A stretch of DNA of 64,000 nucleotides from an uncultured delta proteobacterium (lineage in GTDB: Bacteria; Desulfobacterota; Zymogenia; Zymogenales; Zymogenaceae). The translations under genes were made by a program, and so were the position numbers. The stretch is taken from NCBI GenBank assembly GCA_963735595.1, contig CAVTLK010000005.1:384001-448000 (forward strand). The letters are read 5' to 3'. The first letter of the stretch is position 1. Every line of letters starts with the position of its first letter. The notes below the pieces were generated by a model that ran no database searches, had not been told where the DNA came from, and saw only the letters and a program-made list of their open reading frames with translations. Positions 22,600-58,334 of this stretch are shown one piece after another.

Positions 22600-22624
22600 C
22601 CGACGGGGGGGCAGCGCCCCCCAC

Positions 22625-23120
22625 CGTCATTGCGGATAAAGCGAAGCACGGTGACAGTGGGGGGACTGCTATGACACTTCTCCGTCATTGCGAGCGCAGC
22701 GAAGCAATCCCCTTGTTGTACGGTGACAGTCGGGAGGTTGCCGCGTCGGCCCCGATGGGGCCTCCTCGCAATGACGACGAAGTGGGTGAGCGGAATTCCG
22801 ACGGCACTTCTCCGTCATGGCGAGCGTAGCGAAGCAATCCCCTTGTTGTACGGTGAAGACGGGTAACAGTGAGGGGATTGCCGCGTCGGCCCCGATGGGG
22901 CCTCCTCGCAATGACGGCGGAGTGGGTGAGCGGGATTCCGACGGCACTTCACCGTCATTGCGAGCGCAGCGAAGCAATCCCCTTGTTGTACGGTGAAGAC
23001 GGGTGACAGTGGGGAGGTTGCCGCGTCGGCCTGGCGGCCTCCTCGCAATGACAATAATAGTCGTCGCCGAGGGCGACGTCGTTAAGCATTGCCGCGGCCC
23101 CTCCGGGGCCTCGCAAAGAC
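22625..23120. repeat. Array of CGTC-tagged palindromic repeat dimers (3 units of about 130-140 bp plus degenerate ends)
   Basis: CGTCATTGCGAG..AAGCAATCCCC - TTGTTGTACGG..GACAGT - G(A/G)TTGCCGCG..CTCGCAATGAC repeated. Confidence 0.92.
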
Positions 23121-23148: not shown

Positions 23149-24201
23149 GTGACCGAAACCAAGGAGACGACCGAGAAGAAGGAACCGATCGAAAAAAAGG
23201 TACCGACCGAGAAGAAGGAACCGATCGAAAAGAAGGAGCCGGCCGAAAAGAAGGTAAAGACCACGTTCGTCGCGTTCTCCGGGACGGGTTCGGCCCTGCT
23301 CGGATACGCGGCCGCCCTCATCCTGTGCGGCGCGCTGGCCTTTATCCCCCTGCCGTTCGTGACGGTCGCGGTACGGAAATGGTTTTACCGCTGCCTCTCG
23401 GTTACCGATTCGGGCACGCCGGTCTCCGTTTCGTTTGACGGGAGCGCGGCCGCCCTCCTGAAATACTGGATACCGTCTCTCGTCCTCTTCGCGGTGACGG
23501 GCGTCTCGCTTTTCTTCGGTATCACCGAGAAGTCCGAAGGGTTCCTGACGTTCCTCCTGATCACGATCTCCATCCTCGCGCTGGTGCCCCAGGCGTGGCT
23601 CTGGGCCGCAAAGCACACGTACACGGTTGCCCATACGAAGGCGTCGATTGGCTCTGTCCCGGTGACGTTCGCCTTTTCCGGGAAGGGGACGACGGCGCTC
23701 TGGCACGGGCTGAAGATGCTCTTTTCGGCCTTTGCCGCGGGCCTCCCCATGCCGTGGGCGCTCACGGGTGCGGTTTCCTGGTGCCTGGGGGCCACCGATA
23801 TAAAGGCCGGGACCGACTTCCGGCCATCCTTCTCCGGCAAGGGCGGGTCGCTTTTCTGGTACGGAGTGGGCTTTGCGATCGCTCCCTTTTTCGCCTTCCT
23901 CATCGCCCCCTCGCTGGTCCGGGGCCTGCTGGCCTGGGCCGCCCGCTACACCAATGTCATCGGGCTGGAACGGACGGTCGAGTTCGAATTCACCGGGAAG
24001 GCCGGCCCGATCTTCGGGTACGTCTACCTCCTGCTCGGCCTCGGGGTCCTGGGGCTTATCCTCAACCTGCTGTTGGCCGAGGTCGCGCCCGAGCCGGCCC
24101 GTTTTGCGCTGGTGAGTGCGCTGTTCGTCTTCACGGTCCCCTTTATTGCCGCCGCCTTCCTCAGGTGGTGCGCGCAGAACCTCGACGTCGTCAAGAAATA
24201 G
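23149..24201 (+). CDS. Multi-pass membrane protein, YjgN/DUF898-like, with N-terminal EKK repeats
   Basis: Repeated F(S/D/T)G(K/T/S) plus TM pair modules; GTG start with GAGGTG RBS. Confidence 0.65.
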   Translation: MTETKETTEKKEPIEKKVPTEKKEPIEKKEPAEKKVKTTFVAFSGTGSALLGYAAALILCGALAFIPLPFVTVAVRKWFYRCLSVTDSGTPVSVSFDGSAAALLKYWIPSLVLFAVTGVSLFFGITEKSEGFLTFLLITISILALVPQAWLWAAKHTYTVAHTKASIGSVPVTFAFSGKGTTALWHGLKMLFSAFAAGLPMPWALTGAVSWCLGATDIKAGTDFRPSFSGKGGSLFWYGVGFAIAPFFAFLIAPSLVRGLLAWAARYTNVIGLERTVEFEFTGKAGPIFGYVYLLLGLGVLGLILNLLLAEVAPEPARFALVSALFVFTVPFIAAAFLRWCAQNLDVVKK

Positions 24202-24475
24202 GCGGTAATGACGGCGAAGTGGGTGACAGTGAGGGGATTGCCACGCCCCCTCCGGGGCCTCGCAATGACGGTAAAGTGGGTGAGCGGGATTCCGTCGTCA
24301 CTTCTCGGTCATTGCGAGGGAGTGAAGGAGATTGCTTCGCTTCGCTCGCAACAGGCTCCGCAATCCCCTTGTTGTACGGGGAAGTCGGGTGACAGTGAGG
24401 GGATTGCCGCGTCGGCCTGGCGGCCTCCTCGCAATGACCGCGAAGTGGGTGAGTGGTGTTCCGACGGCACTTCTC

Positions 24476-24976
24476 CGTCATTGCGAGGGAGCGAAGGAGA
24501 TTGCTTCGCTTCGCTCGCAACAGGCTCCGCAATCCCCTGACTATGTAGTAGATATCTATAATCACCAAGAATCTCTTCCGGTCCTTTCAAGGGATGGAGA
24601 AACAATTCTACGTCTATATCATGGCCAACGAACATAATACCGTCCTATACGTCGGAGTCACCAATGATCTGGTCCGGCGGGTCTTTGAGCATAAAGAGAA
24701 ACTCGTAAAAGGGTTTTCCAGGACGTATAACATCACCAAGCTGGTCTACTACGAGGTAGTCCAGGAAGCCGTGGCGGCCATCGCAAGGGAAAAGCAGCTG
24801 AAGGCGGGGTCGAGGGAAAGGAAGGTTGTATTGATAGAAAGCGTGAATAAGGAATGGAAGGACCTGTACGAGGAAATAGTCTAGAAGTGGAATGTTCGGC
24901 TTTTGACGGGATTTCAGTACGGTTTACGGTGACAGTGAGGGGATTGCCGCGGCCCTTCCGGGGCCTCGCAATGACG
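24476..24976 (+). mobile_element. Putative autonomous repeat element: inverted CGTC arms enclosing a GIY-YIG gene
   Basis: Left arm 24476-24537 and inverted right arm 24939-24976 bracket CDS 24594-24884; mobility is inferred. Confidence 0.55.
24594..24884 (+). CDS. Stand-alone GIY-YIG nuclease (96 aa)
   Basis: YVYIM..LYVGVT..L.RRV.EH..GF..Y..KLVYYE..AIAREKQLK..N.EW.DL. Confidence 0.93.
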   Translation: MEKQFYVYIMANEHNTVLYVGVTNDLVRRVFEHKEKLVKGFSRTYNITKLVYYEVVQEAVAAIAREKQLKAGSRERKVVLIESVNKEWKDLYEEIV

Positions 24977-25288
24977 GCGAAGTGGGTGGGCGGTGAGGGA
25001 TTCCGTCGTCACTTCACCGTCATTGCGAGGGAGTGAAACGACCGAAGCAATCCCCTTGTTGTACGGGGACAGTCAGGGGATTGCCGCGGCCCCTAAAGGG
25101 GCCTCGCAATGACGGCAAAGTGCGTCGAAGCAGGCAAAAACGCCGATAATCAGGGCTTTTAAAAGGCAAAAGCGACTTTAGACCCGCTATTGCTTTCCCG
25201 CCCGCCATAACCGCACTTTTCGGCCCTCAACCGCCCCCCGCGGGCGCAATAATAAGGCAAAACCAATTAGATTCCTCTAATTTTTTTC

Positions 25289-25317: not shown

Positions 25318-25588
25318 ATGTTGAAATGCTGGAATAGCAGTATCGTCATGCACCTTTATGTTCCTAATATCAATGAGTAATATCTCCGGGCCCGAGGGCA
25401 ACTGAACCTACCGACAGACAACTCACCCTGCCGGGTTTCGGACGAGCGAGAGTGGAAGGAGGTGATGATGAGCGGCCGTCACGTGGAAACAGACGGTTAT
25501 TTTCCTGGTTGAAAAACAGGGTTATGTTCACGGTTTTTCAAAGTACGAGCAGGAAAGATAATTAATGGGAAAATCAGGAGGTAATTTA

Positions 25589-27328
25589 ATGAGGAAATTA
25601 TGGATTTTAGCAGTAGCAGCCATGCTGGTTGTCGCCGTTGCCGCCCCTTCGTTTGCGGCCGAGACGACCATCACGGGCAGCTACCGGATCCGCGGAGTGT
25701 CCGACTGGAACTATGACAAGAGTAATTTAGTCCCAGGGTTGATCGTAGTGCCGCCCGGCGTACCCTTGCCGTACATAGCCGGGACCGGCGAGAATACCTA
25801 CACCGGGTACTTCGACCAGCGGTTCCGGATGACCATCACCCACAAGCGCAGCGAGTTCCTGAAGGCCGTCGTCAGCATCGACATCGCTGAAGACGTCTGG
25901 GGCCAGCAGAGGAACTTCCGCGGCAACTACTCGACCGGCGGCACCGACGGTTACATCAACACGGCCTACATCGAGGCGATCACCAAGGTCGGCCTCTTCA
26001 AGCTCGGTGTTGACAACCTCGGCGGCCGGTTCGGCCACGGGACGTGGTCGGACAGCGGGATGAACGCGGGCGGCGGCGGAAACCCCGGCATCACGTGGGG
26101 CATGAAGGTCGATAACTTCATCGCCACCGTCAGCTACGTCAAGTACGTCGACCTGATCGACCAGGTATTCGCGAACAAGGCCGGTTTGCCCGCGGGCTCT
26201 CTCCGGATATGGAACGGCGGCCTCGGCAATGAGATCGGCGGAAGCGGCTCCAAGTTCTACAACGACGACCTCAACACGTGGGTCATGACGGCCCACTACG
26301 TCACCAGCAACTACAAGGTCGGGCTGCTCTACCAGCTCATCCACGACCCCAAGACGATCAGCGCGGCCTTCTTGGTCGGCGGCATTTCCGACCAGGGCTT
26401 CTTCGCGGGCGAGCCGCTGGGTATAGCGTACTTAGCGGCTATTACCGGAGCGGGCTGGCCGACCCCCACGGGCGCGATCGGCCCCCCGGCACTCGATACC
26501 GGTTTCGGGCGCGCGGGCATGTATGACGCGTACCTGCACATCGTGGCGCTCTACGCAGACCTCAAGTTCATGGACGGCAAGCTCCGCGTGAAGGCGGAAT
26601 ACGACCGGATCTGGGGCGCGGGCAACCTCAACAGCCGCGGCGACGCATTCAATACCGCGCTTGGCGCCACGGCCCTTCCGGCCATCTACCGGCTCAAAGA
26701 CATCACGGTCGACGGGCACACGGTCTACGCGGACGTCTCGTATGACTTCGATGTAGCGAAGGTCGGCGCGGCGTTCCTGTACGGCGCGGGCGAGAAGCAC
26801 TGGCGGCCGTACGCACAGACCCACTACCACTTCAACACGACCGGTAACGACGACTTCCACTGGGGCAACATCATCGTTCCGGGAGATTCGGCCCTGCTGG
26901 CCTCGGGAGCCTTCCCGCTCGGCCTGGGCAACTCCCCCGAGAACGTGACCTCGGCGAAGATCTACGGATCATTCAGCCCGATCGAGAAGCTGGACATCCA
27001 CGGCGCGGTCATCTGGGCGATGTACACCGAGCCGGTCGGCCGCTATGCGGGCGGCACCTTCGGAGTGCCTCTCCAGCCCTTCTACGGCCACCCGATGAAC
27101 TACATGAACGGCAGCTCGTCGGTGGGCTATGTTCCGGCGCACGGAAGCCACGACCTCGGATGGGAGCTTGACCTCGGCGTGACCTACCAGATCATGGAAG
27201 GCCTGAGCCTCAATTCGGAGTTCGGCGTCCTCTTCACCGGCGACGCGTTCGATTACGTGACCGCGACCGGCGACCAGGACTGGGGCAACATCTACCGGTG
27301 GGTCAATACGCTCACCTACGAGTTTTAG
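25589..27328 (+). CDS. Outer-membrane beta-barrel porin-like protein 1
   Basis: Signal peptide ending SFA, amphipathic strands, C-terminal LTYEF; RBS AGGAGG; alternative start 25565. Confidence 0.8.
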   Translation: MRKLWILAVAAMLVVAVAAPSFAAETTITGSYRIRGVSDWNYDKSNLVPGLIVVPPGVPLPYIAGTGENTYTGYFDQRFRMTITHKRSEFLKAVVSIDIAEDVWGQQRNFRGNYSTGGTDGYINTAYIEAITKVGLFKLGVDNLGGRFGHGTWSDSGMNAGGGGNPGITWGMKVDNFIATVSYVKYVDLIDQVFANKAGLPAGSLRIWNGGLGNEIGGSGSKFYNDDLNTWVMTAHYVTSNYKVGLLYQLIHDPKTISAAFLVGGISDQGFFAGEPLGIAYLAAITGAGWPTPTGAIGPPALDTGFGRAGMYDAYLHIVALYADLKFMDGKLRVKAEYDRIWGAGNLNSRGDAFNTALGATALPAIYRLKDITVDGHTVYADVSYDFDVAKVGAAFLYGAGEKHWRPYAQTHYHFNTTGNDDFHWGNIIVPGDSALLASGAFPLGLGNSPENVTSAKIYGSFSPIEKLDIHGAVIWAMYTEPVGRYAGGTFGVPLQPFYGHPMNYMNGSSSVGYVPAHGSHDLGWELDLGVTYQIMEGLSLNSEFGVLFTGDAFDYVTATGDQDWGNIYRWVNTLTYEF

Positions 27329-27392
27329 GACGGGCGTTTGTAATTGGTTTTTAGAAGTACGTAAAGACCAAGAAATTTAAGGGAGGAATTTA

Positions 27393-28820
27393 ATGAAAAA
27401 GGCATTGACAATCTTAGTCGCGATGCTGTTCCTGGTCGTGGCGGTCGGCGCTGTGTACGCTGCCGAGACGACCTTCAACGGACAGTACAAAGTTCGCGGA
27501 TGGAGCAACTGGAACTTCGACAAGAAAGTTACCGCTCCTCTCTCCGAGAGGGGACGGTACGACGGGTACTTCGACCAGAGGTTCCGCCTGACCATCACGC
27601 ACACCCGGAGCGAGTTCCTGAAGGCCGTCGTACAGCTTGACCTCGTTGAGGACACCTGGGGACAGCAGAGGAACTTCCGCATCAACAACAGCACGACGGG
27701 CAGCTTTGTCCGCAAGGCGTACATCGAGTTCACGCTTCCCAAGGTTGGGACGTTTACCGTTGGCAAGCAGCCCGCCCTCCTCGGGTACGGCCTTGCCTTC
27801 GCCGACAGCTCCGGCAACCTCGACGGCCTGACCTGGTCGAACAAGTGGGGCCCGTTAGGCGTATCGGCGATGTACTTCAAGCTGGATGACAACATCCTGC
27901 TGGGCGGAGCGAACGAGTCCTACAACCGCGACAGCCAGCTCTGGCTGTTGGACCTCGCCTACACCCCGAACGACAACCACATGATCGAGCTCTTCGGCGG
28001 TTATGCGGACTTCGACGCGGGCATGCCCATCACGCACAACTGGGCTTTCAACTGGGTTACCCCGTTAGCCCCCCCGCTCACGAACGCCTTCGATGACATC
28101 GACGCCAATATCGGCCTGGTGGGCCTTGCCTACACCGGCGAGTTCGCGGACATGATCACCGTCAAGGGCGAGTTCAGCTACCTCTTCGGCAGGGCTGACC
28201 TCCTGGATGCCGGCGGGGCCAACAATTCGAAACTCACCGGACACAACCTCTACGTTGATGTTGCGTACCACAACGACCTGATGACGGTCGGCGCGGCGTT
28301 CATCTACGGCAGCGGCGACACCTCGAGCGGCTACGGCGCCAACCACCTCAACGTCAACTTCATCCTGGCCGACGAGTTTGTCTTCGGCAACATCATTGCC
28401 TCGGGCAACGGCGGCCTGAACGACGCCTTCGGCGGCGGCCTCGGCTTCTGCGACGACATCGAGAACCTGACGGCGGCCAAGATCTACTTCGAGATCACCC
28501 CGCTCTGCTGCGGCGGCAAGCTCACGCTGAACGCGGCCGTGATCTGGGCCAAGTGGACGGAAGATGTCGGAGCCGGAACCCCCTACGGGCATCCGGTCAG
28601 CTACTACGGAAACGGCTATACTCCGTTCGGCTATGCCTCGACGGACCTCGGATGGGAAGTGGACTTCGGCCTGAGCTACGAGATCATGGAAGGCCTGACC
28701 TACAGCCTGGCCACCGGCGTCCTGTTCACCGGCGAGTCGTTTGATTATCTCGGCGGCGGTGTGAAGCAGGAATGGGGCCCGATGTGGACCGTCAACAACA
28801 ACCTGATCTACGAGTTCTAA
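27393..28820 (+). CDS. Outer-membrane beta-barrel porin-like protein 2 (paralog)
   Basis: Signal peptide, shared GYFDQRFR/RSEFLKAVV/WGQQRNFR/IMEGL blocks, C-terminal LIYEF. Confidence 0.8.
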   Translation: MKKALTILVAMLFLVVAVGAVYAAETTFNGQYKVRGWSNWNFDKKVTAPLSERGRYDGYFDQRFRLTITHTRSEFLKAVVQLDLVEDTWGQQRNFRINNSTTGSFVRKAYIEFTLPKVGTFTVGKQPALLGYGLAFADSSGNLDGLTWSNKWGPLGVSAMYFKLDDNILLGGANESYNRDSQLWLLDLAYTPNDNHMIELFGGYADFDAGMPITHNWAFNWVTPLAPPLTNAFDDIDANIGLVGLAYTGEFADMITVKGEFSYLFGRADLLDAGGANNSKLTGHNLYVDVAYHNDLMTVGAAFIYGSGDTSSGYGANHLNVNFILADEFVFGNIIASGNGGLNDAFGGGLGFCDDIENLTAAKIYFEITPLCCGGKLTLNAAVIWAKWTEDVGAGTPYGHPVSYYGNGYTPFGYASTDLGWEVDFGLSYEIMEGLTYSLATGVLFTGESFDYLGGGVKQEWGPMWTVNNNLIYEF

Positions 28821-28885: not shown

Positions 28886-28954
28886 ATACGCGCCGGCCCG
28901 GACGACCCCGAAAATAGTTGATTTTGACGGGAAAATGCCGTATAAACGTAGTAT

Positions 28955-29420
28955 CCGTCGCCGAGGGGACGGACGGGGCTCGCAATGACGGCGAAGTGGG
29001 TGACGGACTGAGTCGCCACGGCGCCTACGGGGCCTCGCAATGACCTTTTCACCGTCATTGCGAGGAGCGAAACAGCTTGCTTCGCTTCGCTCGCAACAGG
29101 CTCCGCAATCCCCCGACTGTCACCGTACAATAAGGGGATTGCCACGCCCCCTAAAGGGGGCTCGCAATGACGGCGAAGTGGGCGACGGGTGACAGTGGGG
29201 TGTGCGACGGCACTTCACCGTCATTGCGAGGGAGCGAAACAGCTTGCTTCGCTTCGCTCGCAACAGGCTCCGCAATCCCCCGACTGTCACCGTACAACAG
29301 GGAGGTTGCCACGGCCCCTAAAGGGGCCTCGCAATGACAATAATAATCGTCGCCGAGGGCGACGTCGTTAAGCATTGCCACGTCGGCCTGACGGCCTCCT
29401 CGCAATGACGGCGAAGTGGG
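28955..29420. repeat. CGTC palindromic repeat array (no nuclease gene)
   Basis: Five CTCGCAATGAC and two CGTCATTGCGAG arms; shares blocks with the 22.6-25.1 kb arrays. Confidence 0.9.
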
Positions 29421-29473
29421 TGGTTCTGGTGTGTGGTATGTGCGGTTCATTCAGTATTACCGGGGAATAGACC

Positions 29474-44151: not shown

Positions 44152-44696
44152 GGGGGTAGGGGAGAGGAGGGGTGTTGCGGCGCTTATTCTCTTGCGTGGC
44201 AAAGGATTTTACATTTTCCATGCCGTAAATCCCCACTCGTTATTACGAGCCGCCTGAAAGGCGGCGCGGCAATCTCGTCGATGATCACTCGCGAAGCGGG
44301 GCGATCACTCTGTAGATCAACGTATTAAAAGAGCCGCGCCCTTGCCCCACCCGCACCGATGAGATTGCTTCGGTCGCCGAGGCTCCCTCGCAATGACGGA
44401 TATGATTTGTCACGCTGAACCGTAACCGGTTAAGTCAAGTCACTCCACTGTACCTTCGCAGCCGTACCTCACTCGTCGTTGCGAGCCCCCGGAGGGGGTG
44501 CGGCAATCTCATCGGTGATCGCACGCGAAGCGGAGCGATCACTCCGTAAATCACGCGGTAAAAAACCACCCCTATGCCTACCCGCACCGATGAGATTGCT
44601 TCAGTCGTTACACTCCCTCGCAATGACGGGTATGGCTTTTCTGTATAGACCATATCGTAATAAGTCCGGGACCCTTTTACCAGATAGAACCTCACT

Positions 44697-45180
44697 CGTC
44701 ATTGCGAGGAGGCCGACAGGCCGACGCGGCAATCTCATAGGTGATTGCGAGCGAAGCGACGCGATCACTCCTCAATATAAGTCGTCGGAGAGATCGCGCC
44801 ATTCGGGATTGAGGCTATCGATCAACTCCTCTTTTTTCTTCCTCGAGCCGCCCTTGATCCGCTTTTCTCTCAGTATTGCGGTTTCGGCCGTCGGGAATGT
44901 CTCGCAGTAGACGAGTTTCGAGACGCGATACTTCGCGGTAAAGCCCGGGTTTATCCCTTCTTTATGCTCCTGGACACGCCGTGTTATGTTATTTGTGATT
45001 CCGGTATAGAGGACGGTGCTGCTATTATTCGTCATGATGTAGACGTAGAATTGCCTTGCCATTGGTTTTTACCCGGGAGTCTTAAAATCGGAGCAACGTC
45101 AGGTTTTTTTACTGAGCCTACGCTCTTTGCCACCCGCACCGAGGAGATTGCTTCGGTCGCTTAGCTCCCTCGCAACGACG
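44697..45180 (-). mobile_element. Putative autonomous repeat element 2: inverted CGTC arms enclosing a GIY-YIG gene
   Basis: Arms 44697-44736 and 45144-45180 bracket CDS 44772-45062; mobility is inferred. Confidence 0.55.
44772..45062 (-). CDS. Stand-alone GIY-YIG nuclease (96 aa), paralog of 24594-24884
   Basis: YVYIM..LYTGIT..RRV.EH..AILREKRIK..NPEW.DL; 50/96 identical to copy 1 by manual ungapped alignment. Confidence 0.93.
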   Translation of the reverse strand: MARQFYVYIMTNNSSTVLYTGITNNITRRVQEHKEGINPGFTAKYRVSKLVYCETFPTAETAILREKRIKGGSRKKKEELIDSLNPEWRDLSDDLY

Positions 45181-57888: not shown

Positions 57889-57924
57889 GGTATTCATCGG
57901 CCGCGTGCGCGGCCGATGAATACC
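57889..57924. repeat. Perfect 17-bp inverted repeat just after the CoA ligase stop
   Basis: GGTATTCATCGGCCGCG-TG-CGCGGCCGATGAATACC. Confidence 0.85.
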
Positions 57925-58334
57925 GATTGATATCGTCATTGCGAGCCGCCGAAGGCGGCGCGGCAATCCCGGACGTTGTTCCAAAAGGGCCTATACGGCA
58001 CCAGGCATGATTAGTACGGGGAGGCGTTTTTCGCGGCCGATGAATACCGATTGATATCGTCATTGCGAGCCGCCGAAGGCGGCGCGGCAATCCCGGACGT
58101 TGTGCCAAAAGGGCCTATACGGCACCAGGCATGATTAGTACGGGGAGGCGTTTTTCGCGGCCGATGAATACCGATTGATATCGTCATTGCGAGCCGCCGA
58201 AGGCGGCGCGGCAATCCCGGACGTTGTTCCAAAAGGGCCTATACGGCACCAGGCATGATTAGTACGGGGAGGCGTTTTTCGCGGCCGATGAATACCGATT
58301 GATATCGTCATTGCGAGCCGCCGAAGGCGGCGCG
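57908..58334. repeat. 124-bp tandem repeat (3 full + 1 partial), each carrying one CGTC arm
   Basis: Unit starts 57908, 58032, 58156, 58280; one substitution (TGTTCC/TGTGCC) in unit 2. Confidence 0.95.

Follow-up and report, generated by a model that had tools for sequence, protein, structure and literature searches.

A nuclease gene enclosed by inverted hairpin arms

The window, by which we mean the whole 64,000-nucleotide stretch of contig C5 analysed here, carries a small nuclease gene between two inverted hairpin arms (24477-24975). Both arms match the form GTCATTGCGAG...GCAATC with their GTC tags pointing outward, and the 407 bp in between hold an intact 96-aa GIY-YIG open reading frame. 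We refer to the gene as ssn, after the family to which it is assigned below, and to the arm-gene-arm unit as a cassette. The features of the cassette and its surroundings are as follows.

22622-23052, no strand: neighbouring cluster of gene-less dimers of the same spacer family, from repeats and spacers
24236-24438, no strand: lone arm and gene-less dimer with a 36-bp spacer, upstream in the tandem cluster of the cassette, from the arm pattern
24477-24534, plus strand: left arm, a GTC-tagged composite hairpin with outer stem ATTGC/GCAAT, a nested inner hairpin and its tag outward
24535-24593, plus strand: left inner stub and 5' leader, containing TATAAT at 24557-24562
24594-24884, plus strand: ssn gene for a single-domain GIY-YIG nuclease of 96 aa (Pfam GIY-YIG, E 6e-15)
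24926-24941, plus strand: right inner stub (spacer tail), common to gene-less dimers by sequence recurrence
24942-24975, minus strand: right arm, a GTC-tagged hairpin of 34 nt with its tag outward
25019-25113, no strand: downstream gene-less dimer with a 26-bp spacer, from the arm pattern
28954-29424, no strand: third nearby cluster of gene-less dimers, with 26-bp spacers and in opposite orientation, from repeats and spacers
44698-45179, minus strand: second ssn cassette with its own inverted arm pair (gene 44772-45062, 53% identical)

The composite hairpin of the left arm (58 nt) equals that of the neighbour at 24308-24365, and the right arm resembles 24236-24269 and 25079-25113. Gene-less dimers near the cassette have the same arms around spacers of 26-36 bp. 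The spacer tail kept after the ssn stop (24926-24940) also appears in gene-less dimers (22648, 22720 and 25063), and the first bases of the left stub and leader are common to the same cassette type in a sister species. The arm pair with its reading frame, the short-spacer neighbours and the retained tail had all been reported in the preliminary description, and each was found again here. The same description had pointed to the TATAAT at 24557. The hexamer is present, but a promoter scan made no sigma-70 call that includes it and showed no matching -35, and it is absent from the closest sister-species cassette (L014); its role as a promoter is thus unsupported and was dropped.

Three intact small GIY-YIG genes (24594; 44772, minus strand; C2:850424) and one 5'-truncated gene (C3:109489) were found in the genome. 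Each of the four has an arm at a distance of 38-69 bp, whereas of 20,000 random 290-bp stretches 1.4% fell within 150 bp of one. Two intact copies sit inside a dimer and the C2 copy between two dimers. The copies are 53-59% identical to each other, with no recent identical ones among them. Gene-less dimers at 44259-44627 retain the inner stubs of the 44772 cassette, and families of gene-less dimers with fixed spacers of 26, 51 and about 68 bp are dispersed on several contigs. No ssn remnant was found inside a 517-bp head-to-head dimer at C1:906785.

That no RAYT flanks these repeats, as first described, also held on genome-wide inspection. The UvrC gene and four HUH Y1 transposase genes lie 9.6-216 kb from the nearest arm. 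None of the four transposases is flanked by arms or lies within 9 kb of one, and each has other, unrelated flanking repeats. A reading as RAYT-flanked repeats was therefore rejected, the gene at the arms being a GIY-YIG gene. The transposases have distinctive surroundings of their own. One, of 175 aa (L005:1159-2615; G000 C4:58769), has tandem arrays of a 25-bp GTAG-headed unit on both sides, with 22 overlapping family copies listed and one inverted copy directly 3' of the gene. Two adjacent genes for proteins of about 325 aa, 79% alike (L006/L007; G000 C5:3337-4792), each lie between their own GGGGTC-ended terminal inverted repeats in a TIRYT-like manner, and inverted ends of a third kind occur at L008.

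Other features of the window were recorded alongside. Tandem porin-like genes occupy 25565-28820, the first with a weak DESULF_POR1 match, and arm clusters lie on either side of them (22.6-25.1 kb and 29.0-29.4 kb); this recalls the NTS clusters beside Neisseria membrane-protein genes. An 18-bp coding tandem repeat of 5 copies (23151-23258) marks the start of a 350-aa membrane protein without a Pfam family. At 57908-58334, a near-perfect 124-bp tandem array has one arm per unit, suggesting that the unit was amplified locally and recently with no partner arm.

An Ssn protein subgroup and its hairpin subtype

Ssn homologues are defined in PMC11893778 by a tblastn match to Neisseria SsnA with E<1e-10 over more than 75% of its length. 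We used the N. gonorrhoeae orthologue as query in place of the N. meningitidis protein; it has 94 aa, the residues Y6/Y17/E64 and eight NTS copies within 1.7 kb. It matched the window gene at 24594-24884 over residues 2-94 of 94 (E 9e-26, 47% identity), placing the gene among Ssn homologues as so defined, and the other three genome copies with E values of 1e-23, 1e-19 and 2e-11. The 96-aa product has GIY-YIG as its one Pfam domain (E 6e-15), within the limit of a single domain in fewer than 150 aa used for Ssn. Y6, Y17 and E64, essential in SsnA, align to Y8, Y19 and E66, which are invariant in 19/19 alignment rows. On sequence homology, the window gene belongs to the Ssn family (SsnA).

A search of NCBIfam with the protein returned no Ssn model above cut-off, and a structure search found no solved Ssn, the best solved matches being 1zg2 and Slx1. 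UPF0213/YhbQ, Slx1 and UvrC GIY-YIG domains share the fold and catalytic core of the window protein, but at about 19-26% identity, and the YhbQ-like matches L220, L226, L229 and L230 had no flanking hairpins. The window protein represents a subgroup with Ala71-Gly72-Ser73-Arg74, where Neisseria has Trp-Asn at the Gly72-Ser73 positions. An AlphaFold model (pLDDT 91) puts residues 72-73 in the turn between the E66-bearing helix and the next helix, where they may touch DNA.

According to the accessible text of PMC11893778 (Chenal et al. 2025), SsnA of Neisseria binds NTS hairpins in single-stranded form and cleaves the DNA a few bases upstream of them, three homologues act likewise with differing specificity, and SsnA lowers the integration of transforming DNA. 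The SRM repeat is reported near 71% of SsnA homologues and on both sides of 42%, and NTS-ssnA-NTS was proposed to be a domesticated mobile element, IS200/REP-like. The window locus shares with this system a single-domain GIY-YIG protein of about 95 aa with three essential residues and 47% identity to the Neisseria orthologue, as well as flanking CGTCAT-headed hairpins with many genomic copies. It departs from it in the ATTGC/GCAAT outer stem and long, variable inner hairpin, in Gly72-Ser73 for Trp-Asn, and in having four copies in one genome.

The preliminary description knew of no characterised system of this kind, which does not stand: the pairing, the hairpin-specific cleavage of ssDNA in vitro and the REP/IS200 analogy appear in the 2025 paper as far as its text was accessible (PMC11893778). 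With the Ssn nuclease/NTS-SRM hairpin system already published there, we rejected a categorically new system. The locus is the known Ssn system with a hairpin subtype outside the published pattern, and no discovery in kind.

This subtype is abundant in the genome. A strict arm pattern finds 119 arms, 46 of them on C5, and three Markov-resampled versions of C5 contain none. The base preceding the GTC tag is C in 88/159 arms and T in 61/159, and 35 head-to-head arm pairs were listed. The published SRM, NTS and NTSvar patterns matched 0 arms. SRM has 36 matches genome-wide, with 10 on C5 against 4-11 in resampled DNA. We read this mismatch as marking a subtype and not as exclusion from Ssn, since the SRM pattern is a search tool that is itself both-sided in 42% of homologues. 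The arms are a long, variable-loop subtype on an ATTGC/GCAAT stem, outside the published SRM pattern. As ssDNA, the left arm folds at -18.1 kcal/mol (z -2.9) and the right arm no better than shuffles (z -0.9); folding support is weak in 3/4 arms tested. The core words of the hairpin are absent from 14 supplementary files of PMC11893778. Among papers accessible without subscription, our search found no description of the ATTGC/GCAAT long-hairpin core and, beyond PMC11893778, none linking GIY-YIG to these repeats.

CGTC REPs were defined by Di Nocera et al. (2013), who in the accessible text (PMC3733652) found no dedicated transposase and described four families with 8-9-bp stems and 4-5-base loops, with long-loop exceptions. 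The arms agree with these repeats in the CGTC/TGTC tag, AT at the stem base, head-to-head heterodimers, conserved spacers and the lack of a flanked RAYT gene. At 34-58 nt and with nested hairpins, they are set apart from families 1-4 by the stem and loop sizes described in that text.

Flanks of homologues elsewhere were examined in 181 loci (21 relatives, 80 genomes, 80 metagenomes), a sample that favours close relatives of the query. After 5 short or identical entries were dropped, 153 were left below 80% identity, and 139 of these had at least 250 bp on each side. The hairpin was defined as GTC followed by five bases that start the stem, the complement of these no more than 70 bases on, and finally C. 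By this general rule, which was framed after inspection of the homologue flanks, 133 of the 139 loci have a hairpin within 300 bp (3.75 when shuffled) and 110 have hairpins on both sides (0 when shuffled). The two-sided loci comprise 77 with outward tags, as at the window locus, 9 inward and 24 direct. The homologue flanks thus bear out what had been expected of them, and with all four genome copies at arms they agree with the earlier view of a GIY-YIG protein as the dedicated partner of CGTC-type hairpins.

A homing-type or other free-standing nuclease gene might have landed in a repeat-rich spacer, making the association incidental. The spacer is indeed a hot spot in which relatives hold other inserts. 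Against this, hairpins accompany 133/139 homologues, the matching of subtypes described below holds inside single genomes, and the match to a group I intron endonuclease is weak and partial (21 bits, cut-off 56). We consider an incidental association highly improbable, and the identification as a homing endonuclease was rejected on that partial match and on the flank counts, provided that these hold in an unbiased sample.

The kind of hairpin follows the kind of protein, as told by residues 71-73. In 143 labelled rows, stems fell into 94 GC (as here), 30 NTS-like CC, 14 CT, 1 TC and 4 other. All 87 Gly72 proteins have a GC (ATTGC) stem, which 45/52 non-Gly72 proteins lack (139 rows of four classes), and 29/30 CC-stem rows are Trp72, as in Neisseria. 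G296 holds both kinds, with the Gly72 gene flanked by the ATTGC/GCAAT stem and the Trp-type gene by NTS-type (CC) stems. G146, G231 and G269 have 86-324 GC arms, yet any stems found beside their Trp-type genes are of NTS type. A quick protein tree (153 rows, 96 columns) was mostly unresolved, with 4 starred branches, and an independent-pairs test of the residue-stem link had only 2 supported pairs. The ATTGC/GCAAT subtype goes with the Gly72 subgroup, but shared ancestry alone may explain the link. Separately, the arms beside Gly72 genes at L223 and L225 (G118, G177) start with GACATTGCGAG, not GTCATTGCGAG, an altered tag.

Probable movement of cassettes and distribution of arms

The orthologous spacer, which has the membrane-protein gene upstream and the porin-like gene on its other side, lacks an ssn gene in 5/5 relatives (G001, G002, G003, G005 at one of two paralogous sites, and G007); of those compared, a single lineage carries the gene at this position. 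No arms are present there in G001, G005 and G007, and G003 has two arms beside GTAG-type hairpins. In that G003 spacer (locus L041) the GTAG-type hairpins adjoin the CGTC arms; two repeat systems use common spacers. At this site G002 carries a shortened dimer whose inside matches the 3' part of the full G002 cassette, 22 kb away, with 88% identity over 94 nt. The match covers the last codons and the 3' stub, which identifies the G002 dimer as a gene-less dimer formed by internal deletion and lying at a second site.

Other copies have stayed in place. The window cassette type also occurs at the C3 site (about 70% identical), which is common to G002, and the site of the 44772-type copy is kept in G002 and G003. 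Further copies hold position across sister species (L018, L026, L031; L014 with the truncated C3 copy), so movement must be rare. Our data suggest that cassettes have moved, but rarely; their mobility is plausible. Conservation shows no sharp stop at the tags. None of 17 isolated dimers has a target-site duplication (mean longest match 3.1 nt, against 3.25 in mismatched pairs). A metagenome pattern scan for the orthologous junction gave 0 matches, and sequencing runs, 4 of 24 aligned, covered at most 18% of the stretch in any one and yielded only relatives' contigs and repeat cross-matches. Viral contigs (4 loci) and plasmids (26 records, several chromosome-sized) gave no indication that a phage or a plasmid serves as vehicle.

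GIY-YIG chemistry is hydrolytic, which would leave the rejoining of cut strands to host repair. This bears on whether the cassette could be a self-sufficient transposon, excised and re-inserted by Ssn as by a RAYT or IS200 transposase, the strong form of the view taken in the preliminary description. Such an element would account for the outward-tag arm-gene-arm layout (77/110 loci), the empty sites and the miniatures; it would also fit the lack of target duplication, as IS200/IS605 elements make none. However, to our knowledge GIY-YIG enzymes have no covalent strand-transfer or strand-joining step. In addition, a lone head-to-head cassette presents one correctly oriented arm per strand, so that each strand would be cut once. 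The copies are 53-59% identical with no recent identical ones, and 33/110 loci have other layouts. We therefore regard self-sufficient transposition as improbable.

Gene and repeat counts were compared in 301 genomes of the phylum, each at least 90% complete, using a back-translated Gly72 motif; the tally was made by hand and kin are non-independent. The motif occurs in 3/211 genomes with 0 strict arms, 2/50 with 1-9, 17/40 with at least 10, and 11/16 with at least 40. Two of the three motif-positive, arm-less genomes have variant arms beside the gene, and the third motif hit has no Ssn by profile. Five genomes with at least 40 arms have no motif, and in these a profile search found Trp-type Ssn only in three and none in two. 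All five are draft assemblies of 30-500 contigs. In arm-rich genomes without a matching gene, the gene may have been lost once the arms had expanded or may be missing from the assembly, or another enzyme may have spread the arms. The expected correlation of gene with repeat number is seen in the rise with arm count and broken in 5/16 arm-rich genomes.

These exceptions are among the points in favour of a purely host-serving nuclease, one that cuts hairpins, for example to limit integration of incoming ssDNA, while the repeats spread through an HUH transposase in trans or plain recombination. In the accessible text of PMC11893778 that is the sole role shown in vivo, in Neisseria. Some ssn copies hold fixed positions, and no matching gene is seen in genomes that have 78-324 arms. 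In addition, of the 14 GTAG-type sites in the genome, 6 are no more than 200 bp away from a CGTC-type arm, indicating RAYT-type traffic in the same spacers. Host service alone does not readily explain why a single genome holds four divergent copies, all with stubs of their own, why the orthologous site is empty in 5/5 relatives, or how an internally deleted cassette came to lie at a new site. Moreover, these arms border none of the HUH transposase genes. We hold this explanation to be rather doubtful. The preliminary description had inferred an autonomous form of the repeat family. That such a form spreads the repeats is favoured by the empty sites and the deletion derivative, and made less likely by the arm-rich genomes without a matching gene and the long-fixed copies.

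A proposed model for hairpin spread

The cassette resembles RAYT/REPIN systems (TnpA-REP, REPtron), as described in the sources accessible, in that the enzyme gene is flanked by its own palindromes, gene-less dimers are dispersed, and inheritance is partly vertical. Unlike those systems, it has a hydrolytic GIY-YIG enzyme instead of an HUH tyrosine transposase and a GTC tag instead of GTAG. We favour, on balance, a process in which the nuclease triggers the spread of cassettes and dimers and the host completes it.

In this model, the Ssn enzyme would likely bind arm hairpins as ssDNA and cut a few bases 5' of the GTC tag. By analogy with the Neisseria homologue, cleavage would be Mg-dependent, restricted to ssDNA and orientation-specific. 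Cuts would be made while the locus is single-stranded, during replication or uptake. In a lone cassette they would fall once per strand, at opposite ends. In a tandem cluster, successive same-strand arms (24308, 24477 and 25019) could release a whole arm-spacer-arm unit, the gene-bearing one included. Host repair and recombination would then mend the cuts and occasionally place a copy of a cassette, or of a dimer formed by internal deletion, elsewhere between genes; arm clusters would expand in the same way. The nuclease would thus trigger spread without completing it alone.

More broadly, and with considerable doubt, we propose that Ssn genes are the missing mobilisers of CGTC REPs, acting in a REPIN-like manner through a GIY-YIG nick and host repair. 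There would be several enzyme-hairpin pairs, in which the stem is read by residues 71-73, a turn that follows the catalytic helix and leads into the next one: Gly72 with ATTGC, Trp72 with ATTCC, and Gly71-x-Leu with ATTCT.

The large Gly72 subgroup with its long-hairpin target widens the Ssn system, and it is invisible to the published repeat pattern. In Data 4 of PMC11893778, as accessible, Nostoc favosum (locus L060), which has a gene of the same subgroup and the same hairpin subtype, is cd10448/SsnA-positive yet scores 18 SRM against 21.5 shuffled, as by chance. Because the pattern misses the long-hairpin subtype, the link between gene and repeat has been underestimated. With full, deleted and empty alleles now matched, the question of what spreads CGTC REPs, left by both Chenal et al. 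and Di Nocera et al., can be put to the test. The correspondence between residues and stem allows specificity to be tested directly, with a view to a new class of tools that cut ssDNA. If the turn at 71-73 does read the stem, it would amount to a small reprogrammable code for ssDNA cutters.
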